Assembly (NCBI GenBank): GCA_963717145.1 | Contig: OY970325.1 | Coordinates: 4,896,001-4,960,000, forward strand | Source: an uncultured Armatimonadetes bacterium | GTDB taxonomy: Bacteria; Armatimonadota; UBA5829; DTJY01 | Direction of reading: 5' to 3' | Length of the DNA: 64,000 bases | Part shown: piece after piece, positions 3,881 through 47,680 of the stretch | Layout of the letters: each line of letters opens with the position of its first letter | Position numbering within the stretch: the stretch's first letter is position 1 | Program-made: the position numbers and the translations under genes | Notes under the pieces: generated by a model | What the model was told of the DNA's origin: nothing | Databases searched by the model: none | Seen by the model: the letters and a program-made list of their open reading frames with translations, nothing else

Positions 3881-3947
3881 CGGATGATCCGGGCTAGCAG
3901 ACTGAAGAATCGGGACGATTCCTCCGAAATTCCTGGGTGGTAAGGTA

Positions 3948-5309
3948 CGTGTTGCCTCATTTAACTTTGTTACCGAAACGCCATTCGTTGCGTCATTGAT
4001 AATGTTACCAAGTAGTGTGTTCAAGTATGTCAGATCGGCTCTTGATCGCCGCTCAGGGCCGCGCCTTGCTCGCTTTCGATCTGTCTTTGTTCGGCATCCT
4101 GTCAAGCTTTGATGATAGCCTGTGGATGCGTCTTAGTAGCTCCACCGGGTTCGTCGCTCTACGTTCTTTATCGAGGCGATCCTTTGCTTCATCGTCAAGC
4201 CATCCTTCAACACTTATCAGCTTGCGGTACGGCGTCATCGCAGGCTCATAGCGTTTGATCACTTTACTCCCAATCCGCTCCTTTTCTTTAAGACGCATCA
4301 TGGGCTGACAGAAGTTGTGATACGCCACGATCAGCGGATATATCGCCTTTAGTACCGCAAGCTGCTCGTCCGTCTCGAATCGCCGGTAACCTATAAACTG
4401 CCGGACTACGCTCCAGTTCTTCTGCTCTACATGACATTGATCGTTCTTCTTGTAAGGCCGACTGCGCGTAAACGTGATCCTGTGCGCTCGACAGTACTTG
4501 TTCATGTGATGGTTGATGAACTCGCCGCCGTTGTCGGTATCTATGCCTCTGACTGCAAACGGTGCGCTCTTGGACGCGGACTGCACCGCAAGCACGGTTC
4601 CGTGCTCCCCTCGGCCTTTCATTCCATCAAGCGCTACCCATCCGGTCGCTACATCAGTCATAGTCAAAGTATACAGGAACTCTCCGCTCCCGTCACCTCC
4701 GCAATGACCCACCAAGTCCATCTCGAAGAACCCAGGCTCAGCTTCATCCCAGTCGGCAAACGTCCTCACCGGGATCTGAGACCGAAGCAGTGTCCCCGGC
4801 TTTGTTAAGGTCCTCCCTGTTAGCGATAGGGCAGACCGCTCCTTCTTCATCAACCTGTCGATGCTCGACGCGCTGATCGAGTTAAGCAGCCTCTCTTCTT
4901 CTGGTGTAACCGTTATCTCCCCGAATGACTCCAGTATGGGTAGAAACTCAGTCAGAAACGGCTGCAGACGCTTACCGCACGCGTAGAAACTCGCAGCCCA
5001 GAGTGTCTTCAGCTTGTGGGCTATCGGCTCGTATTTCGACTTCCTTGCGCGTCTCACTGGACTCCTCGCTGGTGGAACTCCTTTCGCGAACAGCCTCACC
5101 AGCGACTTCCTGTGGTAACCGGTCAATCCCTGGACTTCACTCAATACCAGCTTCTTCTCCGATTTGGTGGCTTTGCCATATTCTTTGCGTTTGCGCCTCA
5201 CGACTTCTCTTACGGATGCAGTTGTCATCTTCTCCATGCCTCAGTTTCGGTAACATTCTTATCTGAGGCAACGTTTCCGTTTCGGTAACATCGTTCGTGA
5301 AGCAATTCG
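3948..5309 (-). mobile_element. IS with rve/integrase-core DDE transposase (ISNCY/IS481-like), copy 1
   Basis: 1362 bp, essentially identical to 32040-33401. 5-bp TSD AGGTA at 3943-3947 and 5310-5314. Ends carry repeated TTGCCTCA-N7/8-TGTTACCGAA motifs. Confidence 0.9.
4053..5237 (-). CDS. DDE (rve) transposase
   Basis: EMDLVGH, IDTDNGGEF and RSRPYKKNDQCHVEQKN catalytic motifs. Confidence 0.9.
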   Translation of the reverse strand: MEKMTTASVREVVRRKRKEYGKATKSEKKLVLSEVQGLTGYHRKSLVRLFAKGVPPARSPVRRARKSKYEPIAHKLKTLWAASFYACGKRLQPFLTEFLPILESFGEITVTPEEERLLNSISASSIDRLMKKERSALSLTGRTLTKPGTLLRSQIPVRTFADWDEAEPGFFEMDLVGHCGGDGSGEFLYTLTMTDVATGWVALDGMKGRGEHGTVLAVQSASKSAPFAVRGIDTDNGGEFINHHMNKYCRAHRITFTRSRPYKKNDQCHVEQKNWSVVRQFIGYRRFETDEQLAVLKAIYPLIVAYHNFCQPMMRLKEKERIGSKVIKRYEPAMTPYRKLISVEGWLDDEAKDRLDKERRATNPVELLRRIHRLSSKLDRMPNKDRSKASKARP

Positions 5310-5314
5310 AGGTA

Positions 5315-5343
5315 TAGACAACACGCAGGAATCGTGCTATAAT
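5315..5343 (+). promoter_or_regulatory. sigma70 promoter of tRNA-Asn
   Basis: TAGACA-17 bp-TATAAT with extended -10 TG, about 50 bp upstream of the tRNA. Confidence 0.75.
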
Positions 5344-5391
5344 TCCATGGCTGGCAGGGATCAGCATTCATACCTGCCAATCCGTCGATGC

Positions 5392-5464
5392 TCCTCGGTA
5401 GCTCAATCGGCAGAGCACTTGGCTGTTAACCAGGGGGTTCGTGGTTCGAGTCCACGCCGGGGAG
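5392..5464 (+). tRNA. tRNA-Asn (GTT); probable island integration site
   Basis: Cloverleaf with acceptor stem TCCTCGG/CCGGGGA, D arm GCTCAATCGGCAGAGC, anticodon loop CTGTTAA and T loop GTTCGAGTC. CCA is not encoded. Confidence 0.95.
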
Positions 5465-7026
5465 CTCAACCTTTACGTACTGGACAACATCAGCACCATC
5501 TTCCCGCGCATAGAACTCGAATTCGACCGTCTTATCCTTCTGCACCACGGCTTTCTTCAGGATGAAGTCCACCAGGTGTTCCTTCTCTTCCTCCGTGCAG
5601 CCCGGAAACACAGTTGCGAACTCAGCGAAGACCTGCTGAGCCGCCTCTGCATCCACCGAGTCTGGCTTTGCCTCCTTCAGCCTGGTGCGAACGATGTTCA
5701 GTTGAGCCTTGATGGTGGCAAGCACATTCTCCAGTTCCGCAAGGCGCGTCTGGACTGATGTGCTAGCAAGGCCCTGCTCTATTGCACTCATGACGTTGCC
5801 GAGTTTGACCTCGACTTCCTTGCCACGTTGGACGAGGGCTTTCTCCTCCACCTCTATCTGCTCGGTGTTCTCGTCCGTCATGCATGCTTGAGCCGCAGCC
5901 CCCTCTATGAGCGTCCGATCCTCGGCTAACTTAGCGACAGTATCGCAGAACATCTCCTCTATGATGTCGGCATTCATTCGCCGAATATCGCAGTCGATCC
6001 CCCGGTACCTGCCGGTTCGGTAGCACTCATAGTATGGGGTATAGCCTTTCTTGCGGCGGGGATGATTCGTCGATCTTGGCACAAGGCGGCAGCCGCAATC
6101 GCCGCAGTAGATCTTGCCGACTAGATAGTAGCCATGAGGACTATCGATCCGGGGATGCCTGAATCCATCAGCGAACAAGCCCTGAACGAGATCAAAGACA
6201 TCGGCATCCACGATGGCAGGATGCGTACCCTCGACGCGTATCCCGTCATAGTTCAGTTCGCCCAGGTACACGCGGTTTCTCAGGATGTAGTCAACCTTCT
6301 GCCTGGACCATTCGCTGACCACGTCTTTGGTAGCATTCCGAAACTTGGGGCGCTTAGTCTGGGCTCCCAGGGCTATCAACCTGTCTCTCACAGCCCCAAG
6401 GCATTTGGTCTCAAGATAGGTCTCAAACATCAGTCTAACGATTGACGCCTCCCTTTCATTCGGAATGAGCTTCCCATCGAGTACATCATAGCCTAAGGCC
6501 AAATTGCCACCCGGCCATCTTCCCTGTCGGACCATTGCGGTCATCTTGTCTCTCGTTCTCTCTGCGACCATCTCGCGTTCGAGTTCGGCGAAGGTCAGAG
6601 CGATATTCCGCATAGCCCGTCCCATCGCGGTTGAGGTATCGAACTGCTCCTTGACCGAGATGAAGCTGACGCCATACTGCTCGAAGGTACGGTCGAGGTC
6701 AAAGAAGTCCGAAGGGACCTGGTGATCCGGTCCAGCTTGTAGGTCACCACCACGTCGAACTTCCCCATCTGGCAGTCCGCGAGAAGAGACTGTAGTCCGG
6801 GACGGTTTGTGTCCTTTCCGGAGAACCCGCCGTCCTCATAGAAGGCGACGATCTCCCAGTCGGGATGGACCGCTTGGATGTAGTTCCGAACGTAGTCCTT
6901 CTGAGACTCCAACGTGCTGTAGTCGCCCTCACTCTGCTCCACGGTCGAACAACGGCCATACGACACTGCTCGAACAACGCCCTTTCGCTCCATGTTGGCG
7001 CCACGCTTGGGTACTCTCTTGCGCAT
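5426..7026 (-). pseudogene. Large serine recombinase (island integrase), frameshifted near 6710
   Basis: Resolvase domain (YGRCST...YEDGGFSG...KLDRITRS) in ORF 6595-7026. Recombinase, Zn-ribbon (CGDCG) and coiled-coil domains in ORF 5426-6625. Adding one base near CTTCGGAC joins them. Confidence 0.8.
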
Positions 7027-7027
7027 C

Positions 7028-9383
7028 TTATACTGCCTCCCCTTCTTCGGGCCAATCCAGGATGCCGAGCTCTCGCACTCGCTCCAGCGCCGTCCTCAGG
7101 CTGTCGCCGCCAACTATTCGCCATATCCGCATCCTCATATACACCACCGCTTGGACTCCTATGCCCATTAGCTTGGCTGTCTCTTCGCCGCCGTATCCAT
7201 CTACCAGCAATTGCAGGCACTCCATCTGCCGCTTGGTCGGAGGCGTTAGTCCAAGCGCCGTAGCTCGATGGGAGTAGTTGGGCGATGCCAGATGCTGGCA
7301 TGCCTTGAGAAGCATGAGCGGCGATGGGTCATCCGGGGCCAGTAAGCCGAGCGAGGCGGCCTTGGCTATTGCAGCTTCGCTACAGTGTGCTCCGAGCTTC
7401 ACCCGGATCCGGGCACGCCTGCCCGACACCGTCGATTCCGGAACACACAGTTCTTCCGCTATCTCAGGATCGGTCTTGCCGGCAGCCATCGCCTTGAGCA
7501 CCAGCATCTCCTGTGACTTGAGTGCACAGGCGTCCTCCTTTGGCTTGCCCCAGCGACCATCGAGTGGAAGGCAGTGCGCCCAGTCGGACAAGTACGGCTT
7601 GATCTTCTCAATGGCTTCCTCCAGTGATGTAACACCCAAGCCAACTATCGCATCCCTGCGATGCCTCTTTACGGTGCCAACCTTGACATTCCATCTGGCC
7701 GCGATCTGCGCGTTACTGTATCCATCGGCGGCGAGAGCGAGATAGGCCAACTGCCTGCGCCCCACGGGCGGCTTCTTGATGCCGTTCCTGGCCCGCTCCC
7801 ATTGCGAGTGCACCGGAAGCGTGAAATGGATCTCGTCGATGAACCTGATCTTAAGCTTGATCAGTGTCACGCTGTCCATGCGGCGGACTCGGATATGTTC
7901 TATCAGCATCTCGTAGACGGCACGGCGTTCTTTGGGAAGCATGGCCGACCACATAGTGGGGAAGTCGCGAAGCAGTTGTACGGCTCGGGACTGCTGGGCC
8001 TCCAGTGTCTCCAACCTGACGTGCACATTCTCCAACTCGGACAGGCGCGTGGTGATGAACGTCTTGCGGTCCGATACGGCCCTATCGTAGGCTGTCAGGG
8101 TGTCTAGCGATACCTCGTCCCTGGCAAACGCCCTGGAAAGCTCCTCCTTCTTGGAGTCAATCCTGGTAAGCTCAGACCGGAGACTCTCGGCTTCTGAATC
8201 GTGATCCTGGGGCAGCCGTTCCAGGATATCCTTTGCTACGGTCTCCGCTTTGTCCAGGACGAGCGGGTCTTGAGCGATCTTCATGATCTCGTGGTCGATT
8301 CGAGGCTCCAAGAACCCCGCAGGTATGTAAGGTCTCGACGCACATGGTATGCCGTGTCGCCGTGTATCCTCGCATCTGTACCCTCTGTAAGGGCCGTTGG
8401 GATGGACGATCCTCATTCGACCGCCGGATTCGTCGCAATACGTCAGCCGCGCGAGAGGGGCCTCCGCGCAAGACTCCGTTCTCGGCCCGAAATGCTTCCT
8501 TTTCTTCATCTCCTCCTGAATCTGGTAGTACACCGCTTCGTCGTAGATGCGGTTCTCGTGGTGTCTACCTGCTATGCATTTGCCGCCATGGCGGATCAAC
8601 CCCGCATTGAGAGGATTGCGTAGTATGCTCCGGACTACGTTCGGATGCCATCTTGGGCCACCCTTTGGGGCGGGGACTCCCTGCTGCTCCAATTCCCGGC
8701 AGATGTCAAGAAGCCCCAGCCCCCTCAGGTATGAATTGGCTATCTGGCGGATCACAGGTGTCTCTCGTTCATCAGGAGCGATACCCGGTCGGCGACTGGA
8801 GTTATTCATCATCCACCTCCCTTGCAGTTCGCCGCCAGCCGAAGCCGACCTGGCCGGTCGGATAGCCGTCCTCACGCCTTCTTGCCATCGCGGCTTTGAC
8901 ATTCTCTGCCGTGATATCCGAGAAGAGCTCGGCTGCCAATATGAGAATACCGGCGGCGAAACGACCCATCGAACGGCTTGTATCGATGCTATCCTGAACT
9001 GATATCAGCGTGACGTCGTACTTCAGGATATAGTCCTGTAAGAACTCATGCCAGACCCTGGCGTTGCGGCTCAACCTGTCGAGTCGCCAGAAGATGACTA
9101 CCGATACCTCCCCGTCGGCTATTGCCTGGACGAGCGCCGATAGACCCGGCCTGACGTTCTTTGCTGGCGATCCCGGCTTGGCGAAGCCGAGCTTTCCGCT
9201 GTAACCCTCATCAGCGAATACCTTGGCAGTGTAGTTGCCGGGCCCGAAGACGCGGTCCAGGTATTCACGGCATACTCGCTCTTGTTGCTCAAGAGAATAT
9301 CCGAAGTCCGCCTGTTCCGATGTGCTTACGCGGATTGGTATGCCAACCGAGGGTTGGCTACTTTCGTGTGCCAAAGACTTCAA
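7028..9383 (-). pseudogene. Large serine recombinase fused to three LuxR-type HTH domains, frameshifted near 8810-8850
   Basis: Resolvase domain (IRVST, DEGYSG, WRLDRLSR) in ORF 8802-9383. Recombinase domain, coiled coil and three LuxR-like repeats in ORF 7028-8902. Confidence 0.75.
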
Positions 9384-9861: not shown

Positions 9862-10056
9862 TTGACTATATATTACAACAAACGCCCGCTGTTTGATTCA
9901 AGAATGTGGCTTTACTGAGTGCATGAAGCCTGCTGTAATGATTACTGCCGAGGTTCGATGACCCTTGGCTTGTCTCGCTGTCTAATGAGTCTGACAGCGA
10001 CCTGTGCTAGCAGTCTCGCCAAGCGTGCGTACAGCTCCGACTGACTATCCGGTACG

Positions 10057-10218
10057 CTACTGCTCACTGCTCTCACCCCCCTCCTGTGCCTTCCGGGCCT
10101 CCAGGCGTTTCTTAGCCCGAAGGAGAATCTCCAGAGCACGGGCGTAGCGCTCGACGGCGTCTGGTGTCGGAACATACTTGATTGTTGCGGTGTATCCGCC
10201 TCGCGGCTTTCTGCCCAT
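10057..10218 (-). CDS. Small basic hypothetical protein upstream of the recombinase operon
   Basis: 53 aa with a GGGGTC-type RBS, co-oriented with the recombinases. Confidence 0.4.
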   Translation of the reverse strand: MGRKPRGGYTATIKYVPTPDAVERYARALEILLRAKKRLEARKAQEGGESSEQ

Positions 10219-13401: not shown

Positions 13402-15799
13402 CTAGGGCATCGAGAACGAATACACAGGGGGCGGTGCCATCATGGCGAAGAATATCACAAGTGGCAATGCCGAAGAGGGGGCGCAGGATACTCAGGTCCT
13501 CCTCAGGTACATTGTGCATGATCTCATCAATATCAACGCCTTTGTCCACAAAGTCAGCGAAATTGGAGAACGCACCCTGTATTGCCGCTCCAGGCACGTA
13601 GAATACTGTCTGGAGTTTCTGGTCGATTGCAGGGTATACCGCCGTTGACTTTCCGAAACCAAACTCCCCCAGGAGAACTGTGATTCGTCTTCTCTTGTCA
13701 CCAAAGAGCACGGATGCAGGATCAGCTACGAAGGAATCGCCAATCTCAATCCTCTCAAGCTTATTGGGACCAACGACTACCAGGCATTCGCGCAATGGAA
13801 CCTCGGAGATCGGTTCGTATCCTGGAAAGGCCTCGATACCTGGCCTTTTGCCGGGAGACGAAGCCTGTTCCTGCAGGAATGCCTTTACCTGTTGCTTGGC
13901 GGTCTCAAATATGGTCCGCGGTATGATATCACGATACCACACCTCAGCAGTCTCAGCTTTTCCAGACTCCATGAGCTGACTCATCAGGCGGACGAGCTCG
14001 TCACGAATGTCCGCGCTATGTACATTCCGATTCAGTACAAGGACGTACCTCCTGGCCCGGAAGGGGCTCTTCATGAAGGAGTTGACAGACTTCCTGCAGT
14101 TGGCGACCTGTCTGATGCCTACCTCCTGGTCTGTCACTTTGAAGCCCTTGCACTGTATGACCAGAGGGAACGGCTGACTATCCGACCAGGATATGTAGTC
14201 AACTCCAGAGTTATCCAGGGGTGGAACTCCTCAGAGTGGGTAGAGCACGTCTCAGGCAGCCCTTGCCGCGTGCTCAATCCGAGCCAGTTCGCCACTCAGG
14301 AGGGCGGTTCTCACCGCGAGCACTGCATCTGCCCCATCCTTTGTCCACCGCATCCCGGCTTGCTTTAGCCTCTGGCTCACTATCACCTTGCACGCTGATT
14401 CCACCGGACCGCTGCCTATCATCATCCCCTTGGCCCTGTATGCCGGGTAGTTCATGTACTTCCGGTACTTCCTGAAGTCCCATCTCCAGCCGAAGTGCTT
14501 CTTGTTCCTCTTTGCCCCGAGCCTTGCGCCGCTTCATGGCTCTGAGTAGACTCCCAGGTCCCTTCTCCTTGAGCTTCCGGCAGTGCTCATTTGCCCAGCG
14601 CTTCCCTTTGGGACTTCCCTCTCCATAGAGCGCCCGCGCCAAGTTGTGTATGTGCTCGCAGGCATGCCAGTAGTCGATGATCTTGATGCTCTCCGGCAGA
14701 TGATCCCTGACCTCTCTCCATATCCAATCTGCTCCGTCAGCGATGACTATCCGCTCTTTTGCAGTACCGTAGCCGGCTTGCATTGCCCAGGTGTATACCC
14801 GTCTCCCGAACTCTTCGCTCTTCTCTTGTGCCGCTATGTAGCGCGAGTTCGTGACTGTGTCCGTGTCTTTGCCTGCAGCCGGAACGCCTTCGTATACCAC
14901 CATAGCCTTGATGTCATGCCACTGGCCATCGGTGTGCGCTTTGGCCGCGTCTATGCCAATGTAGAGCCTCTGTGGCGTCGCCTCGCAGGAGACCTCTTCA
15001 CCTGTGTCTACCGCAGAGATGATCGCTTCCTGCTCCTCTCGGCGGAGGCATTCCCCAACATCCCGGACTATCTCTTCTTCGCTGCTCTCTTCGATCGCAA
15101 TACCCGTGGTTCGCTCGATCAGCCTTGCGGCTGCTTCATATGGAAGCGCGGCGCAGATCGAGGCCGTGAGTTCTTTCACGCTGGCGGTCCATACTCTCTC
15201 GGACAGCCCCTGCTCGCGGTCCCATGGAATGTAACCCTGCCCGCAGTGGTCGCAGCGGTAATATGCCCGGCTTACCTCTGCATCTCCGTGCAACGTCCGC
15301 ACAAAGCGCTTTCGGTATCCCTTGAACCTGGCCAGTCTGCCGCATTCGCACTCTATCCGAACGCCTCTGTAGGTGGGCTTTCCGCTCATCTTTCCGGCAA
15401 CCTCACTCATCATTGCGCCGGCGATCTGGCGCGCCAGGATCTGAATACGCTCCTCGGCTGACCCCAAGTCCGCGCAATCGATGTAGCTGCGGGCAAAGTC
15501 GCGAGCGGCCTCAAGGAGGGAGTCTGTGTGCAAAAGTGTAAGCCTTCTCTGGGAGTCTCCTTTCGGAATGTTTGTCCTTCAACAAACCGTTACCGACTAT
15601 TACAGGAGACTCCTTCCTTACTTGCTACCCACTCAACGCGAATGCACCCGTTATCCAGAGTAGCTAGATCGGTGCACTCAACGATTCCAGGAAAGGCCAA
15701 GCGTAGGTAAGGTCCGACACCTCGCTGGAAATGATGTCCCTCAAGAGAACTCAAAACATTTCCGATCTGTATGATCTGAGCTTTTGCCTGCCAAGTCAT
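13402..15799 (-). pseudogene. Mrr-like PD-(D/E)xK nuclease fused to NACHT/STAND NTPase, interrupted by one IS and truncated by IS1182
   Basis: Removing IS 14219-15649 and one TSD restores the frame ...LDNSGVDYI...VIQCKGF...GEFGFGKST...VFVLDAL, which stops at the IS1182 junction. Confidence 0.7.
14219..15649 (-). mobile_element. Mutator-like IS (ISKra4/ISLre2 type), copy 1, with frameshifted transposase
   Basis: Ends GGGTGCATTC.../...TCCACCC; 9-bp TSD GTTATCCAG at 14210-14218 and 15650-15658. It is 2 bp shorter than copies 2 and 3, which splits the ORF near 14478. Confidence 0.9.
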
Positions 15800-17884: not shown

Positions 17885-19361
17885 GTAAGAGTTCACGATC
17901 ATTGATAGTCTGAGCAGGAACCTTGGAGCGGACTGTCGAATGGCAGGTTGTGAACGATCTCGGCAACCTATCAAGAGAAGAACTGATCGGCATCGTCCTG
18001 GAGCAGCACCAGGCCGTCCTGGAATTGCGTGAAGGCGTGGACACCCTCACCGAACGCGTCCGAGCGCTTGAGAAGGAGAATGAAGAACTCCGGTCCAAGC
18101 TCGGTGGCGGCGGCAGGACGATACCTGCCTTTGTGAAGGCAAACCGGCCCGAGCGCAAGAAGAAGGATCGCAAGAAGCGGCAGAAGTCGTTTGCACGGCT
18201 GAGGGAGACTCCGACTGAGATCGTGGATCACGCGCTCGACACCTGTCCCGACTGCGGAAGGAAGCTCTCGGGCGGCACGGTGCATCACAGCCGGCAGGTG
18301 ATCGAGATACCGGTGATGCCGGTCAGGATCATCGAGCACCTGGTGATCGGACGGTACTGCGGAGTCTGCCACAAGATACACGTGCCGAAGCTCGACCTCT
18401 CCGAAGAGGTGGTCGGGACACACCGGGTGGGCATCCGGCTGATGAGCCTGGTGAGCTATCTCCACACTGTGTGCAGAATGCCGGTTGAGCGTGTGCAGAA
18501 GCTTCTGGAGTCGCTCTACGGTCTGCATCTCGGGCTCGGAGAGATCGCGAAGATACTCCAGAAGGTGGCCTCCATGGGCAAGCCGGAGGTAGAGAAACTT
18601 CTGCAAGCAGTCAGAGGAAGCCCTACGGTGAACGCGGATGAGACCGGCTGGCGGGAAGATGGGAAGAACGGATACATCTGGAGCTTCACGACGCCACGCG
18701 TGCGCTACTTCGTCCGAAACAAGAGTCGGAGCGGCCAGGTCGCAAAAGACGTGCTGGGAGAGGACTACGAGGGTGTAGTCGTAAGCGACTTCTACTGCGG
18801 CTACAACGTGCTGCTCGGTTGGCATCAGCGGTGTTGGGTGCACTACCTGCGGGACTTGCGAACGCTCGTCGAGGCGAACCCTGACAAGAGAGGGGTAGCA
18901 GTCTGGGCCGGCAAGGTCAAGGCCGTTTACAGGCGCGCGAAGGCATTTTCGGGCGATGATTCGAAGGCCCGGCAGAAGCGGCGAATCGCATTCGAGGACG
19001 AGTTGCTTCGACTCGCCAGACCATATGTGAAGCGGGATGTTCCGCAGAGGATACTCGCTGAGCGGATCGAGAGATTCCTGCCGGAGCTGTTTGTCTTCGT
19101 AGAATGTCCGGAAGTACCAAGCGAGAACAATGCGGCCGAGCGAGCGATCCGGCCTGCGGTAACAGCTCGCAAGATCAGCGGCGGCACACGATCGGCCAAG
19201 GGATCTGAGACCCGCATGGCGCTGATGAGTCTATTCGGAACCTGGCACTTGCGTGGTGAAGATGCGATGGAGTCATGTTGGCGAATGCTCGCGGGCGTTC
19301 CTCAGACACTCGCGACCGATCCAGCCTGACAACTTCACTATCAACGATCGTGAACTCTTAT
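17885..19361 (+). mobile_element. IS66-family single-ORF element (ISBst12-like); transposase 17923-19329
   Basis: Inverted repeats GTAAGAGTTCACGATC/GATCGTGAACTCTTA(T). Leucine zipper, CPDCG, ADETGW, QRCWVH and ENNAAERAIRP motifs. Confidence 0.9.
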
Positions 19362-19369: not shown

Positions 19370-20802
19370 GGGTGCATTCGCGTTGAGTGGGTAGCAAGTA
19401 AGGAAGGAGTCTCCTGTAATAGTCGGTAATGGTTTGTTGAAGGACAAACATTCCGAAAGGAGACTCCCAGAGAATGCTTACACTTTTGCACACAGACTCC
19501 CTCCTTCAGGCCGCTCGCGACTTTGCGCGCAGCTACATCGATTGCACGGACTTAGGGTCAGCCGAGGAGCGTATTCAGATCCTGGCGCGTCAGATTGCCG
19601 GCGCAATGATGAGTGAGGTTGCCGCCAAGATGAGCGGAAAGCCCACCTACAAGGGTGTTGGGATAGAATGCGAATGCGGCAGACTGGCCAGGTTCAAGGG
19701 ATACCGGAAACGCTTCATTCGGACTTTGCACGGAGACATAGAGGTCGAGAGGTCATACTACCGTTGCGACCATTGCAGGCGGGGCTACATTCCATGGGAC
19801 CGCGAGCAGGGGCTGTCCGAGAGAGTATGGACCGCCAGAGTGAAGGAACTCACCGCCTCGATCTGCGCCGCGCTTCCATATGAAGCAGCCGCAAGGCTGA
19901 TCGAGCGAACCACGGGTATTGCGATCGAAGAGAGCAGCGAAGAAGAGATAGTCCGGGATGTTGGGGAATGCCTCCGCCGAGAGGAGCAGGAAGCGATCAT
20001 CTCTGTGGTAGACACAGGTGAAGAGGTCTCCTGCGAGGCGACGCCACAGAGGCTCTACATTGGCATAGACGCGGCCAAAGCGCACACCGATGGCCAGTGG
20101 CATGACATCAAGACCATGGTGGTATACGAAGGCGTTCCGGCTGCAGGCAAAGACACGGATACCGTCACCAACTCGCGCTACATAGCGGCGCAAGAGACGA
20201 GCGACGAGTTCGGGAGACGGGTATACACCAGAGCACTGCAAGCCGGCTATGACGGGGCAAAAGAGCGTATAGTGATCGCCGACGGCGCAGACTGGATATG
20301 GAGAGAGGTCAGGAATCATCTGCCGGAGAGCATCAAGATCATCGACTACTGGCATGCCTGTGAGCACATATACGGCTTGGCGCGGACACTCTACGGAGAG
20401 GGGAATCCCAAAGGGAAGCGCTGGGCAAACGAACACTGCCGGAAGCTTAAAGAGAAGGGGCCGGGGAGTCTGCTTAGAGCCATGAAGCGGCGCAGAGCAC
20501 GAAACGATTCTGAGAGGGAAGCGCTTCGGATCGAGACAGGCTACTTCAGAAAGTACCGCAAGTACATGAACTACCCGGCATACAGGGCCAAGGGGATGAT
20601 GATAGGCAGCGGTCCGGTGGAAGCGGCGTGCAAGGTGATAGTAGGCCAGAGGTTAAAGCAAGCCGGGATGCGATGGACGAAGGACGGCGCAGATGCAGTG
20701 CTCGCGGTGAGAACTGCCCTCCTAAGCGGCGAACTGGCTCGGATCGAGCACGCAGCACGTGCCGCCTGAGCCGTGCTCTACCCACTCTGAGGAATTCCAC
20801 CC
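19370..20802 (+). mobile_element. Mutator-like IS (ISKra4/ISLre2 type), copy 2; transposase 19474-20769
   Basis: 1433 bp with the same ends as copy 1. GIDA, ADGADWIW, IDYWHACEH and IGSGPVEAACK motifs. Confidence 0.9.
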
Positions 20803-30727: not shown

Positions 30728-31981
30728 CTAGTGCGGCGTGGCGGTACGTTTGCGCAGTTCAAATGATTGCCCGTGACATGCAGGACAACTGGCTGCTTTC
30801 AGTGCCTCGATTGTCTTGATCTCCTGCGTGGTCCCGACTTCAATAAGTAGCTGGCAGCTCATGCAGCGGTAGGAGCGTACCGTGCACCTTAGTTCCCCGG
30901 TATAGATGGCACCCTCGAATGCTTCCTTCACCATCGGTGAAGTCTTGCTGGTGGTGTGCAGAATCATCATCTGCCCGGTGCCAGCAATAATCCCTGCGCC
31001 CTCGTACTGGCTGAAACGTGGAATCACCTCGGTGATGATCAGGCCCATATCGAGCAAGGACCGCTGCATGTTCAGCGTGAATCCCGGTGGCTTGTGGGCA
31101 AAGGAGAAGAAGACTGCAAGGTCTGGTTGCTGTTTCAAGGCTTCAATGCCACGCGAGAGGAACAGCTCCATGCCGGGAAGGGTGTAGGGAGGATCCGTAA
31201 GGAAACAGTCGTATTGGTCCTGTAGCACATCTGGCAACGGTTGCCGCACATCAACGGTCTGGCAATCGATCGGCAACCCCAGCATTTGTGCGGCATGCGA
31301 GATGTATGCGGTGAACCGTGAATCGATATCCAGCACCGTAATGACGCCGGTTCTGCCGGTGCGTTCTGGGATGACCTTCTTAAGCAATACTCCGAGTGAT
31401 ATGCTCACCAGATCATCATCGCCAATGCATAGGATGCGTTTGCCAACCAGCGATCCATGTTGGAGGCAGAGGACGGCCCGCCGAAGGCTGGTCTCTATAG
31501 TGCATTTCGACTGATCGATGGACACGTCCACCTGGGGACGCTCGGCGAAGATCTGCGCTAACACGGGCTGCTCGCTGGCAAAGTCATGCGCCATGTCCCA
31601 GGTGCCGTTCTTGAAGCGGGTATACTGCGGGATATCGAGGCCGGCGTACCCTAGGGTACGCTCGACGTAAACTCTGCCTTGATGCGTCAGGATGGTGCCG
31701 TTGCCCTGAGCAGCAACCAATCCCCGTTTCTTGAGTTCGTTCTTGATCGCGGCGATCACCGGCACGGGCAGCAGCACCTTGAGTGCAAGCTCTTTGGTTG
31801 AGAGACCGGTGTTGAGCATCAGAGAGAGCATGATATTCTCCAGTACAACAGTGCCCTCCTGCAGCTTCACTGCATGGGCGACATCCTGCAACATATCTTC
31901 CACTGGTGTCTCCTCTAGGTTGAACTCGAAGTGTTGGCTGATATGGAACCTGTCGCTGCGTGGAACGTGACAGGAGTACAT
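30728..31981 (-). CDS. BpsA/DUF43-like aminopropyltransferase (branched-chain polyamine synthase family)
   Basis: GDDDLVS, LDID and TDPPYT motifs, an N-terminal winged HTH-like segment and a C-terminal CxxC...CxxC. True start may be further downstream. Confidence 0.8.
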   Translation of the reverse strand: MYSCHVPRSDRFHISQHFEFNLEETPVEDMLQDVAHAVKLQEGTVVLENIMLSLMLNTGLSTKELALKVLLPVPVIAAIKNELKKRGLVAAQGNGTILTHQGRVYVERTLGYAGLDIPQYTRFKNGTWDMAHDFASEQPVLAQIFAERPQVDVSIDQSKCTIETSLRRAVLCLQHGSLVGKRILCIGDDDLVSISLGVLLKKVIPERTGRTGVITVLDIDSRFTAYISHAAQMLGLPIDCQTVDVRQPLPDVLQDQYDCFLTDPPYTLPGMELFLSRGIEALKQQPDLAVFFSFAHKPPGFTLNMQRSLLDMGLIITEVIPRFSQYEGAGIIAGTGQMMILHTTSKTSPMVKEAFEGAIYTGELRCTVRSYRCMSCQLLIEVGTTQEIKTIEALKAASCPACHGQSFELRKRTATPH

Positions 31982-32005: not shown

Positions 32006-32034
32006 AGTATACAATAATGTGCTGGCTCCGTCAA
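32006..32034 (-). promoter_or_regulatory. sigma70 promoter of the bpsA-like/fkbH unit
   Basis: Minus strand TTGACG-17 bp-TATACT. Confidence 0.7.
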
Positions 32035-32039
32035 GGTCG

Positions 32040-33401
32040 CGAATTGCTTCACGAACGATGTTACCGAAACGGAAACGTTGCCTCAGATAAGAATGTTACC
32101 GAAACTGAGGCATGGAGAAGATGACAACTGCATCCGTAAGAGAAGTCGTGAGGCGCAAACGCAAAGAATATGGCAAAGCCACCAAATCGGAGAAGAAGCT
32201 GGTATTGAGTGAAGTCCAGGGATTGACCGGTTACCACAGGAAGTCGCTGGTGAGGCTGTTCGCGAAAGGAGTTCCACCAGCGAGGAGTCCAGTGAGACGC
32301 GCAAGGAAGTCGAAATACGAGCCGATAGCCCACAAGCTGAAGACACTCTGGGCTGCGAGTTTCTACGCGTGCGGTAAGCGTCTGCAGCCGTTTCTGACTG
32401 AGTTTCTACCCATACTGGAGTCATTCGGGGAGATAACGGTTACACCAGAAGAAGAGAGGCTGCTTAACTCGATCAGCGCGTCGAGCATCGACAGGTTGAT
32501 GAAGAAGGAGCGGTCTGCCCTATCGCTAACAGGGAGGACCTTAACAAAGCCGGGGACACTGCTTCGGTCTCAGATCCCGGTGAGGACGTTTGCCGACTGG
32601 GATGAAGCTGAGCCTGGGTTCTTCGAGATGGACTTGGTGGGTCATTGCGGAGGTGACGGGAGCGGAGAGTTCCTGTATACTTTGACTATGACTGATGTAG
32701 CGACCGGATGGGTAGCGCTTGATGGAATGAAAGGCCGAGGGGAGCACGGAACCGTGCTTGCGGTGCAGTCCGCGTCCAAGAGCGCACCGTTTGCAGTCAG
32801 AGGCATAGATACCGACAACGGCGGCGAGTTCATCAACCATCACATGAACAAGTACTGTCGAGCGCACAGGATCACGTTTACGCGCAGTCGGCCTTACAAG
32901 AAGAACGATCAATGTCATGTAGAGCAGAAGAACTGGAGCGTAGTCCGGCAGTTTATAGGTTACCGGCGATTCGAGACGGACGAGCAGCTTGCGGTACTAA
33001 AGGCGATATATCCGCTGATCGTGGCGTATCACAACTTCTGTCAGCCCATGATGCGTCTTAAAGAAAAGGAGCGGATTGGGAGTAAAGTGATCAAACGCTA
33101 TGAGCCTGCGATGACGCCGTACCGCAAGCTGATAAGTGTTGAAGGATGGCTTGACGATGAAGCAAAGGATCGCCTCGATAAAGAACGTAGAGCGACGAAC
33201 CCGGTGGAGCTACTAAGACGCATCCACAGGCTATCATCAAAGCTTGACAGGATGCCGAATAAAGACAGATCGAAAGCGAGCAAGGCGCGGCCCTGAGCGG
33301 CGATCAAGAGCCGATCTGACATACTTGAACACACTACTTGGTAACATTATCAATGACGCAACGAATGGCGTTTCGGTAACAAAGTTAAATGAGGCAACAC
33401 G
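32040..33401 (+). mobile_element. rve-type IS, copy 2; transposase 32112-33296
   Basis: Protein identical to 4053-5237. TSD GGTCG at 32035-32039 and 33402-33406. Confidence 0.92.
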
Positions 33402-33417
33402 GGTCGCCGCGAAACAA

Positions 33418-34885
33418 GTAAGAGTTCACGATCGTTGATAGTGAAGTTGTCAGGCTGGATCGGTCGCGAGTGTCTGAGGAACGCCCGCGAGCATTCGCCG
33501 ACATGACTCCATCGCATCTTCACCACGCAAGTGCCAGGTTCCGAATAGACTCATCAGCGCCATGCGGGTCTCAGATCCCTTGGCCGATCGTGTGCCGCCG
33601 CTGATCTTGCGAGCTGTTACCGCAGGCCGGATCGCTCGCTCGGCCGCATTGTTCTCGCTTGGTACTTCCGGACATTCTACGAAGACAAACAGCTCCGGCA
33701 GGAATCTCTCGATCCGCTCAGCGAGTATCCTCTGCGGAACATCCCGCTTCACATATGGTCTGGCGAGTCGAAGCAACTCGTCCTCGAATGCGATTCGCCG
33801 CTTCTGCCGGGCCTTCGAATCATCGCCCGAAAATGCCTTCGCGCGCCTGTAAACGGCCTTGACCTTGCCGGCCCAGACTGCTACCCCTCTCTTGTCAGGG
33901 TTCGCCTCGACGAGCGTTCGCAAGTCCCGCAGGTAGTGCACCCAACACCGCTGATGCCAACCGAGCAGCACGTTGTAGCCGCAGTAGAAGTCGCTTACGA
34001 CTACACCCTCGTAGTCCTCTCCCAGCACGTCTTTTGCGACCTGGCCGCTCCGACTCTTGTTTCGGACGAAGTAGCGCACGCGTGGCGTCGTGAAGCTCCA
34101 GATGTATCCGTTCTTCCCATCTTCCCGCCAGCCGGTCTCATCCGCGTTCACCGTAGGGCTTCCTCTGACTGCTTGCAGAAGTTTCTCTACCTCCGGCTTG
34201 CCCATGGAGGCCACCTTCTGGAGTATCTTCGCGATCTCTCCGAGCCCGAGATGCAGACCGTAGAGCGACTCCAGAAGCTTCTGCACACGCTCAACCGGCA
34301 TTCTGCACACAGTGTGGAGATAGCTCACCAGGCTCATCAGCCTTATGCCCACACGGTGCGTTCCGATTACCTCCCTGGAGAGATCGAGCTTTGGCACATG
34401 CCTCTTGTGGCAGACTCCGCAGTACCGTCCGATCACTCTGTGCTCGATGATCCTCACCGGTATCTCGATTACCTGCCGACTGTGATGCACCGTGCCGCCC
34501 GAGAGCTTCCTTCCGCAGTCGGGACAGGTGTCGAGCGCGTGATCCACGATCTCAGTCGGAGTCTCCCTCAGCCGTGCAAACGACTTCTGCCGCTTCTTGC
34601 GGTCCTTCTTCTTGCGCTCCGGGCGGTTTGCCTTCACAAAGGCCGGTATCGTCCTGCCGCCGCCACCGAGCTTGGAACGGAGTTCTTCATTCTCCTTCTC
34701 AAGCGCTCGGACGCGTTCGGTGAGGGTGTCCACGCCTTCACGCAATTCCAGGACGGCCTGGTGCTGCTCCAGGACGATGCCGATCAGTTCTTCTCTTGAT
34801 AGGTTGCCGAGATCGTTCACAACCTGCCATTCGACAGCCCGCTCCAAGGTTCCTGCCTACGTTATCAATGTTCGTGAACTCTTAC
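33418..34885 (-). mobile_element. IS66-family single-ORF element; transposase 33450-34847
   Basis: GTAAGAGTTCACG inverted repeats; near-identical to 17885-19361. Confidence 0.9.
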
Positions 34886-34889
34886 CAGA

Positions 34890-35050
34890 TGACGGCGGGC
34901 GATACCCCGGCGAGCTGTGCGGAAGCATCCTGTTGTAGCGAGTCCGCTAGCGCTCGATAAGTTCCTTGCCTCGAGCAGGGTATCAAAGACCTCGCCATTC
35001 GGCAACTCATACCTCATCTTACCATTGAAGCTCTGGCAGCAATCTGCTTC
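34890..35050 (-). pseudogene. IS3-family transposase C-terminal remnant
   Basis: SFNGKMRYEL.NGEVFDTLLEAR, followed by a frameshifted YN...PHSS.GYRPP-like sequence. Confidence 0.65.
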
Positions 35051-42560: not shown

Positions 42561-42566
42561 AGCAGA

Positions 42567-43817
42567 TCACCTCACCAACTCCTGAAGATGCAGGCGGATT
42601 TTTGTGATTGCTCCGGCGATCTCTTCCATATCATGGCGATCACCGAGCAACAGGTTCTGTGGCAGCCAGACGGCTTCACGACAGATCTGCTCAGCGACGT
42701 GACAGCGGTCGGCATACGCGGAAGAAACATCCTCACTGAACCCAAACAGCGGATTCCTATAGATTGGATGTGAATAACCCTCGGTGCATGGAATGCCTTC
42801 TGCATTCAGCGCCACGACGAACCGCCTACGACTGAGCCCCGGCCAGGCATCCCGCTGGAAACGGAAGGCAAACAGGTGAAAGATCGGATTTGTGGCACGG
42901 GGATCGAGGTGTTTGACCAGGATTCCCTCCATGCCGCTCAGAAACTCCGTCAGGTACGCCGCATTCGCCGCACGGGTTGCACGTTGGACGTCAAAGCGGC
43001 GCAGCTGTGCGCAAGCCACCGCAGCTTGCAACTCTGTTAACCGGTAGTTCCACCCCAACTCCGAATGCGTATACCAGGGGCTGCCGAAAGCTCTTCCCAG
43101 GGTGTGCAGTGCATAGAGTTTGTGGTAATGATCTTCGCTGTTGGTAACAACGACTCCACCTTCGCCACATGTGAGATTCTTCGACCCTTGCAGGCTAAAG
43201 CATCCGATGTCACCCATTGAGCCGATCGGACGTCCGCACCAACTCGCGTTCACGGCTTGTGCTGCATCTTCTATCACGGATAGTCCGTGCCGTTCGGCCA
43301 AGGTGCACAGGGTATCCATCTCGCATGGCTGCCCTGCAAAATGCACCGCGATGATGGCGCGTGTCTTATCGGTAAGGTGGTCTGGGATGTCGTGAACGTT
43401 CAGATTCCATGTATCGGGACATATGTCGACAAACACCGGAACAGCGCCCGCGTGGAGAATGCATGTAGCGCTAGAAATGAAGGAATACGGCGACACAACG
43501 ACTTCGTCGCCTCGCTGGATATCCACACAACTGACCGCCATGTCTAATGCTGCAGTGCCGCTAGCGACAGCCAACGCGTAGCGGGCGGCGTGCCGCTGGG
43601 CAAAGGCCTGCTCCAGCCGCTCAAGATAGCCATCATTGTTCCCTTGTGGAGATTGCCTTGCCAAACTCACCCGTGACCAACGACCAAGACGCAGGGCATC
43701 CAACATTGCTGACTCATCACTCGCATCCCATTGCGGCCAGGCTGGGAACGGTTTGGACTTTACCTTCTGTCCTCCACATATCGCTAGCTTGCACGTATCT
43801 CGCTCAAGATAGGGCAT
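42567..43817 (-). CDS. DegT/DnrJ/EryC1/StrS PLP aminotransferase (RifK/BtrR-like)
   Basis: FPAWPQW, SGTAAL, EDAAQA, FSLQGSKNLTCGEGG and GWNYRL motifs. Confidence 0.93.
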   Translation of the reverse strand: MPYLERDTCKLAICGGQKVKSKPFPAWPQWDASDESAMLDALRLGRWSRVSLARQSPQGNNDGYLERLEQAFAQRHAARYALAVASGTAALDMAVSCVDIQRGDEVVVSPYSFISSATCILHAGAVPVFVDICPDTWNLNVHDIPDHLTDKTRAIIAVHFAGQPCEMDTLCTLAERHGLSVIEDAAQAVNASWCGRPIGSMGDIGCFSLQGSKNLTCGEGGVVVTNSEDHYHKLYALHTLGRAFGSPWYTHSELGWNYRLTELQAAVACAQLRRFDVQRATRAANAAYLTEFLSGMEGILVKHLDPRATNPIFHLFAFRFQRDAWPGLSRRRFVVALNAEGIPCTEGYSHPIYRNPLFGFSEDVSSAYADRCHVAEQICREAVWLPQNLLLGDRHDMEEIAGAITKIRLHLQELVR

Positions 43818-44018
43818 GTTGTCAATGGGTGCATGGAAGCGTGATCAACCAAACGGGGCCTTGTGCTGCTTGGTACTTTACCCGGCCTGAGTTCTCTTCA
43901 CACCGCCGACAGACCCCCACTCCTTTCCTGTCCAAGCTACGCCTTGTAACCCCTGAGTGTTGAGCTTATGAGATAACGCTTAGCTCCCATGCACTGGACA
44001 GATTCCATTACCAGCGTC

Positions 44019-44435
44019 CTAGGGTCCTGCTACCATATCATCGCCGTATTGTTCATCTTGCTGCGGAAAGCCTCGCAGAACTCCATGTATCTCCATGCGT
44101 TCAGGCTGAAATGCCTGTCGAAACACGGGAATAGCCTCGTGCGGAACGCCTTCTCCGCAGGCGAACACATCTAGGGCTGCATAGCCCTTCTCCGGCCACG
44201 AATGGAAACTGATATGTGATTCACAGAGCAAGACCACAGCCGTCACGCCGGCTGTACATGGAAACGTGTGTACTCTGGTATCTATCACCGTAGTACGACA
44301 AGCCGAAGCCGCAGCCAGCAACGTGTCTCTCACAAACTCGGGATCATCCAACCGAGTCGCTCCCCAGATATCAATCGCGAGATGAACACCAAGGACTTGG
44401 TAGTCATCCGGGCTTGGGCCCTGTCGAGTTATCAT
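44019..44435 (-). CDS. speD: S-adenosylmethionine decarboxylase proenzyme
   Basis: G.HL..D.WG and LLCESHISFHSWPEKGYAALDVFACG, including the ES self-cleavage site. Confidence 0.9.
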   Translation of the reverse strand: MITRQGPSPDDYQVLGVHLAIDIWGATRLDDPEFVRDTLLAAASACRTTVIDTRVHTFPCTAGVTAVVLLCESHISFHSWPEKGYAALDVFACGEGVPHEAIPVFRQAFQPERMEIHGVLRGFPQQDEQYGDDMVAGP

Positions 44436-44806
44436 AGATCCAAGCACAGCACATTTCCCTCTCAGCAGAAGTTGTGCATCGACTCTATAGCATTGCCGCC
44501 ACGTATCGACCCATACTGGCGAACCGACACCCCTTACCGTCCTGCTCACCTTGGCTATCGTGCACCGAAGCAGAAGCAGCACTCCCGACGGCCCAACGAT
44601 GGCATCACAACATGGACATGAAGCCTGTAATGTGCGTAATGGATATCGCTGCGTTTGGAAGCATCATGCTCTCATCTTGCTGTTGGCGATCCAGCAATGA
44701 TATGGGCGCAGTTCTGACCACGTTATCGCTCAACTCGAATCGACCTTGCGTTAGGTTGAAAGGAGAGTGCTTCCTGCTCATCTTCAATGCACTGTACATC
44801 CTAGTC

Positions 44807-44835
44807 AGTATATCATTCAGTCACCCGGAAGTCAA
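44807..44835 (-). promoter_or_regulatory. sigma70 promoter of the speD-degT operon
   Basis: Minus strand TTGACT-17 bp-TATACT with extended TG. Confidence 0.75.
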
Positions 44836-44841
44836 CATGAC

Positions 44842-46308
44842 GTAACAGTTCACGCTTGGGGATAACGAGTTTGATCAGGCAGGGAAGAGGACAGACTTGC
44901 CTGCGAGCAGTTGCCTGCATGATTCGAGCATGTCCAGACCCCTGACGTGCCATGTGCCAAACAGACTCATGAGCGTCATCTTTGTCTCGGAACCCTTCGC
45001 GCTTCGTGTGCCTCCGCATACCTTGCGGGCGATCACACACGGCCTCAGCGCTCGTTCTGCGCCATTGTTGTCCGACGGTACTTCCGGGTACTCTACGAAC
45101 ATGAACAACTCGTGCAAGCGATCTATGAATCTCTTTGCCAGCGTCTGCTGTGGAGCATCTGAGCCGACATACGGACCTGAGAGCGCCTCTACCTCTTCCT
45201 CGAAGAGTACTCGCTTCCACTTGCGAACCTCCGCCTTCTTGCTCCGGAACTCCTTTGCCCGATCGTAAACACCCTTCACCGCATCCGCCCATGCGATGAC
45301 GCCCGTGTCGTCCGCGTTCCTCTCCTTCAGTTTGTGCAGATCCCTGGCCAGATGTGCCCAGCATATCTGGCGGTCTGCAACTACCGGGTTGTATCCGGCA
45401 TAGCAATCCGTTACCACTACCCCTTCGTAGTCGCCGCCTATCGTTTCCTTCGGGATCTCTCCACTCCGACTCCGCCGGTAGATGAAGTAGCGCACGTTCT
45501 TAGTGGAGAAGGTCCAGATGTATCCGTTCAGCCCATCCTCTCTCCAGCCCGTCTCGTCTGCGTTTATGTATGGGCTTCCACGTACAAGCGAGAGTAGCCG
45601 CTCTTTCTCTTTTTTGCCACAGTCTGCCACCGTGTGCAATATCTCGCTTATCTCTCCCACAGAGAGCTGAAGACCATACAGAGCCTTCAGCAATCCCTGT
45701 ATCGTCCGCTTTGTCATGCGACCTACCGTCGAAAGATACGATATCAGGCTCATCAGGTTCACGCCTACCCGATGCTTGCCTACAACCTGGCCGGAAAGGT
45801 CAACCTTCGGCACATGACTCTTGCCACAGTATCCGCATCTTCTGGCGATGAACCTGTGCTCGACTACGTCCACAGGCACGATGGGGATGTCGATGACTTG
45901 GCGGAGTCTCTTTACCGTGCCCCCTGTGAGCGCTCGGCCGCAGTCCGGACACTTCGAGTGCGCGTGCTCGACTACACGGGTGGGTGTCTCCCGCCTGCGC
46001 ACGAACGACTTCTTGCGCTTCTTTCGTTCAGCTGCCCGGCGCTCTTTGCGGTTCGGCTTCACCCAGTCAGGCACGGATGGGGAACTGCCATCACCGCCGG
46101 AAAGCCTGGCGCGAAGGTCTTCGTTCTCCTTCTCCAGGTCGCCGATACGCGCCACGAGTTGGGGAACTAGACCTTCCAACTGGCTGACCCTGGCCTCAAG
46201 CTCCTCGTATGTCGGCTTGGATTGCTCGCTCACACTCCTTGGTTCGAGACGCTCCCAGCAGGTTCCTTCTTCTTACAGACAAAATAATCCCTAAGCCTGA
46301 ACTGTTAC
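44842..46308 (-). mobile_element. IS66-family single-ORF element; transposase 44875-46233
   Basis: Inverted repeats GTAACAGTTCA/TGAACTGTTAC; 8-bp TSD AACATGAC at 44834-44841 and 46309-46316. Confidence 0.92.
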
Positions 46309-46315
46309 AACATGA

Positions 46316-47674
46316 CGAATTGCCTCACCAAAGATGTTACCGAAGTGGATTCGTTGCCTCACGAATGAATGTTACTGTAGAACAGAGGCATGGAGAGGAT
46401 GAGCACTTCAACAACAAGAGAGATCATGAGGCGAAGGAGAAAGGAGTATCTAAGGAGTGGGAAATCGGCCAAGAAGGTGATACTGGACGAGCTGGAGGAG
46501 TTGACCGGTTATCACCGGAAGTCGCTGGTAAGGATGTTTCGAGGAGGCGTGAAGAGGAGGAATGCGCCGATCAGGAGACCTCGAGCTTCGAAGTACGAGG
46601 CGATCCTGCCGCTGCTCAAGGTCCTGTGGGCTACAAGCTTCTACGCCTGCGGGAAGCGGCTTGCTCCGTTCTTGCTGGAACTGGTTTCGGTGATGAAGAG
46701 GTTCGGAGAGATCCGGCCAACCGTGAGTGAGGAGTCGCTGCTTGCCTCGATCAGCGCGGCCACGATAGACAGGATGCTGACGCCGGATCGGGAGTCCATG
46801 AGGGTGAAGGGACGTACGACGACCAAGCCTGGGACGCTGCTTCGGAGCAGGATCGCGATAAGGACCTTCGCCCAGTGGGACGAGAACGAGCCTGGATTCT
46901 TTGAGTTCGACCTGGTAGGCCACTGCGGTGGGACAGCGAGAGGAGAGTTCCTGTATACCCTGAACATGACGGACGTGCACTCCGGCTGGATAGCGCTCGG
47001 CGGTATGAAAGGCAGAGGAGAGCGAGGCACCGTCCTGGCGATCAAATCCGCGTCCGCTCAGCTATCATTCAGGGTCAAAGGGATGGACTCAGACAACGAC
47101 AGCGCATTCATCAACTATCATCTGGCACGGTACTGCCGCCGGGAGAACATATTGCCGACCCGCAGCCGGCCGTACAAGAAGAACGATCAGTGTCATGTGG
47201 AGCAGAAGAACTGGACCGTGGTGAGGCAGTTCATCGGCTACCGGCGATTCGAGACTGATGAGCAGTTGGCCATACTCCAGAAGGTCTATCCGCTGATCAT
47301 GGCCTACCACAACTACTTCTCTCCCATGATGAAGCTTGCCGAGAAGGAACGTGATGGGAGCAAGGTGACCAAGCGCTATACGAAAGCGATGACTCCATAC
47401 CAGAGGCTTCTCATGGCCGACGGATGCATGGACGAGGCTACCAAGGGTCAACTGGCGCGAGAGTATGAATCCACAAACCCGGCCGAACTGCTCAGACGGA
47501 TACGAATGCTGCTCAGACAACTGGAGGACATGCCCACCGAGCAGGCCGATCCCAGGGTACGGTGACCCAGGAGCACGCCTGCTTACGTACCCGGACACGT
47601 AAGACCACTTTCGGTAACAATCCAGATGAGGCAATGATCACCGTTTCGGTAACAAGGATTAATGAGGCAACACG
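46316..47674 (+). mobile_element. rve-type IS, diverged relative; transposase 46390-47565
   Basis: Same CGAATTGC...GGCAACACG ends; TSD CATGA at 46311-46315 and 47675-47679. Confidence 0.9.
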
Positions 47675-47680
47675 CATGAC

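Follow-up and report, generated by a model that had tools for sequence, protein, structure and literature searches.

Insertion at bacterial promoters has been documented for TnGBS conjugative elements, ISLre2 and ISKra4, Mutator-like elements that integrate 13-17 bp upstream of the -35 box; this behavior is termed the 'unique insertion specificity' of one transposase superfamily, and its orientation is attributed, as a proposal, to the asymmetry of the two inverted repeats (Guerillot et al. 2014, PMC3942029). Here we describe an insertion sequence (IS) of an unrelated transposase family whose copies likewise abut predicted promoters, but in a different register. It was found in a 64,000-nt stretch of the genome of an uncultured Armatimonadetes bacterium (contig OY970325.1, positions 4896001-4960000), hereafter the window, and is an autonomous member of an unclassified rve-type (retroviral-integrase-like DDE) family. 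The explanation that best accounts for the whole of the evidence, and that we consider probably correct, is that this IS family integrates at sigma70-type promoters under the guidance of promoter-bound RNA polymerase holoenzyme.

Other described elements resemble the IS in its enzyme or in its general layout. Members of the IS481 family carry a single rve-type transposase gene, generate a short target duplication, have a similar element size and end in TGT...ACA. The integrases of Ty3 and Ty1 in yeast and of Tf1 in fission yeast dock on the transcription initiation complex and integrate with near single-base precision. By sequence, the closest named relatives, which match most of the protein at about 37% identity, are annotated as 'ISNCY family' or 'ISNCY-like element ISBj12 family' and reside on rhizobial plasmids; the passages on ISBj12 in PMC8692435 contain nothing on target choice. 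A full-text search of the openly accessible literature returned no report of promoter targeting for the rve family described here, ISBj12/ISNCY, IS481 or IS66.

The element is 1362 bp long (about 1.3-1.4 kb family-wide), consists of a single transposase gene between its ends and is flanked by a 5-bp target duplication. Copies 1 and 2 in the window are 100% identical across 1362 nt, and the diverged copy 3, at 69% nucleotide identity to both, retains an intact 391-aa transposase open reading frame (ORF). The left end, referred to as the CGAATT end, is the one nearest the 5' end of the transposase gene. The features of the three insertions are as follows.

3943-3947, no strand: target duplication (AGGTA) at the right end of copy 1
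3948-5309, minus strand: IS copy 1, 1362 bp, with left end CGAATTGCTTCA at 5309 and right end CGTGTTGCCTCA at 3948
4053-5237, minus strand: transposase gene of copy 1, 394 aa (Pfam rve, 38.2 bits; D174, D235 and E271 invariant)
5310-5314, no strand: target duplication AGGTA of copy 1, left-end side, at about -40 to -36 of the promoter
5315-5343, plus strand: predicted sigma70-type promoter TAGACA-17-TATAAT, with TG ahead of the -10, pointing away from IS copy 1
5392-5465, plus strand: tRNA-Asn(GTT), the gene served by the copy-1 promoter
30731-31981, minus strand: gene after the copy-2 promoter, 417 aa, with a BpsA_C polyamine synthase domain
32006-32034, minus strand: predicted sigma70-type promoter TTGACG-17-TATACT of copy 2
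32035-32039, no strand: target duplication GGTCG of copy 2, left-end side
32040-33401, plus strand: IS copy 2, with its transposase at about 32112-33296, placed through identity to copy 1
33402-33406, no strand: target duplication GGTCG of copy 2, right-end side
33418-34892, minus strand: IS66-type 2 element, end approximate
44022-44582, minus strand: gene after the copy-3 promoter, 187 aa, with an AdoMet decarboxylase domain
44807-44835, minus strand: predicted sigma70-type promoter TTGACT-17-TATACT of copy 3, with TG ahead of the -10
44836-44840, no strand: target duplication (CATGA) belonging to the left end of copy 3, from which the IS66-type insertion has severed it
44842-46308, minus strand: IS66-type 1 element, 1467 bp, a later insertion that separates copy 3 from its promoter
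46316-47674, plus strand: IS copy 3, diverged, with its 391-aa transposase at 46390-47565
47675-47679, no strand: target duplication CATGA of copy 3, right-end side

The flank of copy 3 becomes legible once the later insertion is taken out. IS66-type 1 is bounded by the 8-bp duplication AACATGAC (44834-44841 and 46309-46316), and removal of the element together with one AACATGAC copy leaves CATGA followed by TTGACT-17-TATACT (44835-44807). A promoter consensus scan of 200-bp windows returned the three promoters listed above and no other site. The first-pass annotation of the window had reported these three cases, with their coordinates, their duplications and promoters abutting the CGAATT end, and all of them proved correct both on re-reading and in the promoter scan. 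It had noted that in all three the target duplication abuts the -35 box in the same orientation, a pattern that extends beyond the window to copies elsewhere in the host genome and to the family at large, as detailed below.

The genome searched is a single contig of 5.37 Mb, of which the window forms positions 4896001-4960000, and it contains 23 copies: the diverged one and 22 of full length that are 99.85-100% identical. Flanks were numbered outward from the left (CGAATT) end, such that +1 to +5 correspond to the target duplication, and 200,000 random positions of the host genome served as background. Across the 23 aligned flanks the five duplicated bases carry almost no sequence information, and conservation sets in immediately beyond them, with T at +6 in 22/23, T at +7 in 18/23, G at +8 in 20/23 and C at +10 in 18/23. 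A -35 hexamer matching the consensus at 5/6 or better begins at +6 in 14 of the 23 copies and nowhere else nearby (0.3% at random positions). The best -10 hexamer at a spacer of 16-19 (+28 to +31) reaches at least 5/6 in 18/23 copies, as compared with 0.35% at random positions, and at least 4/6 in every one of the 23, as compared with 4.8%; a TG precedes it in 12/23. Both hexamers together reach at least 4/6 in 17/23 copies against a background of 0.15%. A chance origin of the register is excluded genome-wide. These data strongly support the view, to which three dissimilar duplications had led the first-pass annotation, that the target is defined by position relative to the promoter and not by the sequence of the duplication.

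Orientation is strictly single: in all 23 copies the left end faces the promoter, and the right-end flanks of the same copies, examined in both orientations, show no promoter peak. Because the promoter-proximal end is always the one at the 5' end of the transposase gene, the transposase gene and the host gene diverge. The core promoter remains intact at the insertions, in agreement with the earlier reading of the window and with the family flanks described below, and every flank faces a gene, of which 3 are tRNA genes (starting at +48, +49 and +83) and 20 are ORFs. Pfam families are recognized in 18 of these 20 ORFs, and they include SecA, PEPCK, glutamate dehydrogenase, ThyX, E2 acyltransferase, phosphoglycerate mutase, BpsA-type polyamine synthase and AdoMet decarboxylase. 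One copy, at 4728348, has an odd-looking flank (GTAACA-16-TATTTT); this flank is one end of an IS66-type element and lies 80 bp before the transposase gene of that element. A script scored the target duplication as intact in 17/23 copies, and reading of the sequence adds copy 3; the flanks of the other five match duplications of other copies (for example, GTGCT at 905202 and 1425534), as expected if copies had recombined with one another.

The fixed orientation and the narrow register bear directly on the view that there is no targeting at all, according to which insertion is random or regional and purifying selection spares the harmless copies that happen to lie upstream of promoters. Insertion upstream of an intact promoter is indeed expected to be nearly neutral; selection of this kind, however, would tolerate any intergenic site upstream of a -35 box, and what is seen is a peak one base wide, a fixed orientation and a set of copies so nearly identical that they must be recent. 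We regard this account, which the positional profiles contradict, as barely credible.

A stronger competitor is direct read-out of the DNA, whereby a domain of the transposase itself would recognize the -35 box, and perhaps the -10, without RNA polymerase, and the enrichment of -10 boxes would arise as good TTGACA sites outside genes are mostly promoters. This account draws support from base conservation at the target, which in the host genome is highest for the T, T and G that occupy +6 to +8, and from the IS termini, which carry TTGCCTCA or TTGACTCA at +5, such that the domain that binds the ends already reads a TTGNC-like word. Yet of the 8289 TTGAC words in the genome just 4.4% are followed by a -10 hexamer of at least 5/6 at a spacer of 16-19, as compared with 18/23 insertion sites, which identifies the target as the promoter and not the TTGAC word. 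Nor can the difference readily be laid to selection, as 22 copies at 99.85-100% identity have had little time in which insertions away from promoters could have been removed. Together with the family-wide data presented next, these figures make direct read-out unlikely.

The first-pass annotation had suggested a survey of flanks across homologs of the transposase, and this survey finds a -35 at +6 and a -10 about 17 bp later enriched over many insertions. Homologs are abundant: 7966 of the 8000 scored database candidates, most of them located on contigs about the size of an IS, matched at E <=0.001. When one genome per species was scanned, 527 encoding stretches emerged, of which the best 80 (39-66% identity) were taken; by record title these fall in Chloroflexota, Armatimonadota, Coriobacteriia, several Pseudomonadota, Bacillota, Planctomycetota, Nitrospirota, CPR and others, and many of the loci come from metagenome bins. 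A generic inverted-repeat finder often picked internal repeat modules as the ends and was replaced by the terminal motif CGNNNTGNNTCA, by which 66 of the 80 loci were usable (10 without the motif and 4 with too short a flank were dropped), giving 64 unique left flanks. In these, TATAAT at 5/6 or better starts at +28, +29 and +30 in 11, 29 and 6 flanks, respectively, with counts of 0-3 elsewhere between positions 1 and 54, and TTGACA at 5/6 or better starts at +6 in 17/64 and at other positions in 0-2; four-position windows farther out in the same flanks, used as a control, gave 1.3%. At the 24 loci with a verified 5-bp duplication the -10 lies in register in 20. Two further genomes have every copy in register (9 copies in a member of Chloroflexia, 7 in a member of Dehalococcoidia), and a relative on a Mycobacterium riyadhense plasmid, with an annotated coding sequence of 1242 nt (about 413 aa), fits by reading, with GGTAG, then TTGCAT at +6 and TAAGCT after 16 bp.

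Pooling gave 104 flanks, 92 of them unique, from several phyla. The -10 is found at +28 to +31 in 68 of the 92, the -35 at 5/6 or better exactly at +6 in 32, and at least one of the two is in register in 77. Judged from these predicted promoters, promoter targeting is a trait of the family as a whole. The pooled set also contains 35 sites that match TTGACA at no more than 2/6, and 26 of these nonetheless hold a strong -10 at +28 to +31 (17 of them at +29), with a spread of -10 positions the same as that in sites with a good -35. Persistence of the -10 register at sites without a recognizable -35 is difficult to accommodate under direct read-out and implies that the register is set by something that spans both elements.

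Holoenzyme guidance supplies such an entity, and we favor it over read-out of TTGACA because promoters and not TTGAC words are hit, because the -10 register persists, and because the DNA upstream of the duplication is irrelevant to targeting. The last point is evident from the copy at 752635, which sits between a promoter and a solo left end of a related IS with the same 5 bp re-used, and from other copies of the rve IS that sit between promoters and ISKra4-like or IS66-type elements. Strand transfer takes place at the upstream edge of the -35 hexamer, such that the duplication spans about -40 to -36; according to the model, the transpososome would reach this point by docking on RNA polymerase holoenzyme already bound to the promoter, without itself reading TTGACA. 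Sigma region 4 and the alpha C-terminal domains contact DNA at the very position of insertion, which would make sigma region 4, or the upstream face of the enzyme seated on the -35 box, the most likely point of contact. Orientation would be set by a systematic difference between the two termini at position 3, which is A or C at 41 of 42 left ends (G in 1, T in 0) and T at 35 of 37 right ends.

The first-pass annotation had already proposed, from the three window copies, that RNA polymerase or sigma region 4 may recruit the transposase; the 26 of 35 weak -35 sites that keep their -10 register fit such recruitment, which would involve physical binding. When the transposase was modeled together with region 4 (residues 290-377) of the host primary sigma factor, the predicted complex scored 0.00 without controls and is evidence neither way. 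The pay-off of the arrangement would be a harmless landing site at which, given the divergent layout of transposase and host gene, transcription from outside would never read the transposase gene in the sense direction, and the harmlessness of the site would account for the 22 near-identical copies. Safe harbor, the strategy suggested in the first-pass annotation, may be inferred from the intact state of the promoters, the real genes that follow them and the large number of copies.

Several observations weigh against this interpretation. The promoters are predictions that rest on sequence and gene context; in 15 of the 92 pooled flanks a strong hexamer is missing from both the -35 and the -10 register; for 31 of the 64 unique single-locus flanks the end was defined by the terminal motif, with no matching 5-bp duplication; and three relatives with longer transposases (from S. 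meliloti, Mesorhizobium and Marinobacter) show no promoter in register. In addition, the -35 is very well conserved in the host genome, with TTG at +6 to +8 in 17/23 flanks, and the IS termini themselves bear TTGCC or TTGAC at +5, from which it follows that a transposase domain favoring TTGNC may share in recognition.

The host genome contains three further IS types that adjoin promoters, each in a register of its own and with the signal at one end only. The first is an ISKra4-like element (14219-15649, with 12 genome copies) that scores 171 bits against the NCBIfam ISKra4 model, below its cut-off of 205; TTGACA at 5/6 or better lies at +17 in 7/12 copies and TATAAT at +40 or +41 in 7/12. This geometry is the published behavior of the group (PMC3942029) and so serves as an internal positive control that validates both the method and the promoters. 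The second, IS66-type 2 (17885-19359 and 33418-34892; 1475 bp; 16 genome copies; NF033517, 251 bits), has TTGACA at 5/6 or better at +18 from its transposase-3' end in 9/16 copies and no peak at the other end. In the window, the transposase-3' end of the copy at 33418-34892 lay 16 nt from the copy-2 -35 box until copy 2 inserted between them. The third is the single-ORF IS66-type 1 (44842-46308, with 15 full genome copies). Counted outward from its transposase-3' end, 6/15 copies have a -35-like hexamer that starts between +6 and +9, and in 9/15 a -10-like hexamer starts between +28 and +32; the opposite end gives no such signal. Among 200 other genomes sampled from the phylum, 6 IS66-type loci had a readable element end, and 3 of these, judged by eye, show a promoter in one of the registers above.

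Convergence of at least three other IS types (the ISKra4-like and the two IS66-type elements) on the same promoters, each in its own register, lends some weight to a structure-guided alternative, in which the shape of DNA at active promoters, such as a bend at -35/-40 or upstream supercoiling, would be recognized without a specific protein contact. Integrase-type enzymes do use bent target DNA. Shape alone, however, would hardly yield a strict orientation (23/23, with no right-end peak) and a single-base register, and a different fixed distance for each family suggests docking that is family-specific. We therefore judge guidance by shape to be quite improbable and retain guidance by the holoenzyme.

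With respect to the enzyme, rve (PF00665) is the sole Pfam family in the transposase, at 38.2 bits against a gathering cut-off of 32.6 and covering residues 167-263; no family is matched by the N-terminal 140 aa at E <=10, and the C-terminal 85 aa give only a sub-threshold SKA2 match. D174, D235 and E271 are invariant in an alignment of 22 homologs and, by their spacing (the second D and the E lie about 35 residues apart), are assigned as the putative catalytic triad. An AF2 model (pLDDT 78.8) depicts two N-terminal helical domains, a disordered linker, an RNase-H-like core, a small beta domain and C-terminal helices. Its closest solved structures in Foldseek are PFV integrase (E 2.2e-6), IS21 IstA, HIV integrase and TnsB, and a sequence search of the PDB likewise retrieved PFV integrase (E 8e-6). 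Each end of the IS bears two tandem modules at about +5 and +38, each consisting of TTGCCTCA and then GTTAC about 8 nt on, presumably representing two transposase-binding sites per end. The notion that the IS ends act as promoter mimics was rejected, as no -10-like peak occurs at a fixed distance inside them.

In relation to the described systems, the IS shares with TnGBS, ISLre2 and ISKra4 an oriented insertion at sigmaA/sigma70 promoters (here at the left end only, in 68/92 flanks), and the statement in the first-pass annotation that promoter targeting is known for TnGBS and ISLre2 is correct (PMC3942029). The families are nevertheless unrelated: at E <=0.01 NCBIfam returned IS481, IS3 and IS21 models only and neither ISLre2 nor ISKra4, which speaks against a Mutator-like (p-MULT 3/4) transposase. 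The geometry differs as well, in that the rve family inserts 5 bp from the -35 (+6) as opposed to 13-17 bp, and its promoter-proximal end is the transposase 5' end, giving the divergent layout, where the corresponding end of the Mutator-like elements is IRr (PMC3942029).

The resemblance to IS481 extends to a single rve-type transposase gene, element size and a short target duplication. Although IS481 is the best NCBIfam model (NF033577), the score of 46.4 bits against a cut-off of 224 places the element outside that family by the NCBIfam rule, and membership was rejected on this basis and on the termini, which are CGNNNTGNNTCA (CG...CG) at both ends and not TGT...ACA. ISBj12/ISNCY elements have in common with the rve family the rve core and a TTGCCTC word near the ends, but their transposases are of about 500-635 aa as compared with 394 aa here. 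The ends differ too, since at the ISBj12-type locus the inverted repeat runs at least 23 bp beyond the CGCATTGCCTC word. That locus was read in a Bradyrhizobium ottawaense plasmid record (about 1390-1444 and 3090-3130), where the 23 bp outside CGCATTGCCTC are mutual inverted repeats; either its true ends may lie farther out, or the element may occupy a palindromic location. Ty3, Ty1 and Tf1 integrases belong to the same structural superfamily as the transposase, although those are eukaryotic retroelements that aim at Pol III or Pol II factors and the present case is a bacterial DNA transposon at sigma70 promoters.

The IS represents a second, unrelated and very large family that aims at promoters, with a geometry different from and tighter than that of the Mutator-like elements. 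How an integrase-type enzyme recognizes a transcription initiation complex would become testable, as would the use of IS copies as base-precise promoter markers in organisms lacking transcriptome data, and promoter-sparing insertion is a candidate tool for benign genome insertion. Promoter targeting as a common, convergent safe-harbor strategy likewise becomes testable, and four IS types in one genome point in that direction. A still broader possibility, which we take seriously without quite being persuaded of it, is that RNA polymerase holoenzyme forms a general landing platform for transposons on which at least three unrelated lineages (Mutator-like ISKra4/ISLre2, rve and single-ORF IS66-type) dock in their own fixed registers, the rve family being the bacterial counterpart of Ty3 and contacting sigma region 4; each copy would then mark a working sigma70 promoter at single-base resolution, uncultured phyla included.

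Some further features of the host genome and the window are recorded here. The same promoter has been hit repeatedly at about 751274-752635 and 1489040-1490418 in the genome and at 33402-33430 in the window, and some copies of the rve IS have a promoter on one side and, on the other, an ISKra4-like or IS66-type element whose own earlier insertion had placed it 16 nt from the -35. Two IS66-type copies, 97% identical to one another, each start directly after CATGAC on either side of copy 3 (44834-44842 and 47675-47690) and thus adjoin both CATGA duplications, by coincidence, target preference or rearrangement. On the minus strand, an ORF at 5426-6625 carries the Recombinase and zinc-ribbon domains of large serine recombinases, with no match to the N-terminal catalytic domain; its 3' part overlaps the end of the tRNA-Asn gene (5392-5465), and the ORF may represent what is left of an element that integrated at this tRNA. 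The window as a whole is unusually dense in IS copies, among them further ISKra4-like copies at 19370-20802 and 50000-51575, and at 51725-55555 it contains a 1277-bp unit in three tandem copies that are 96-97% identical.

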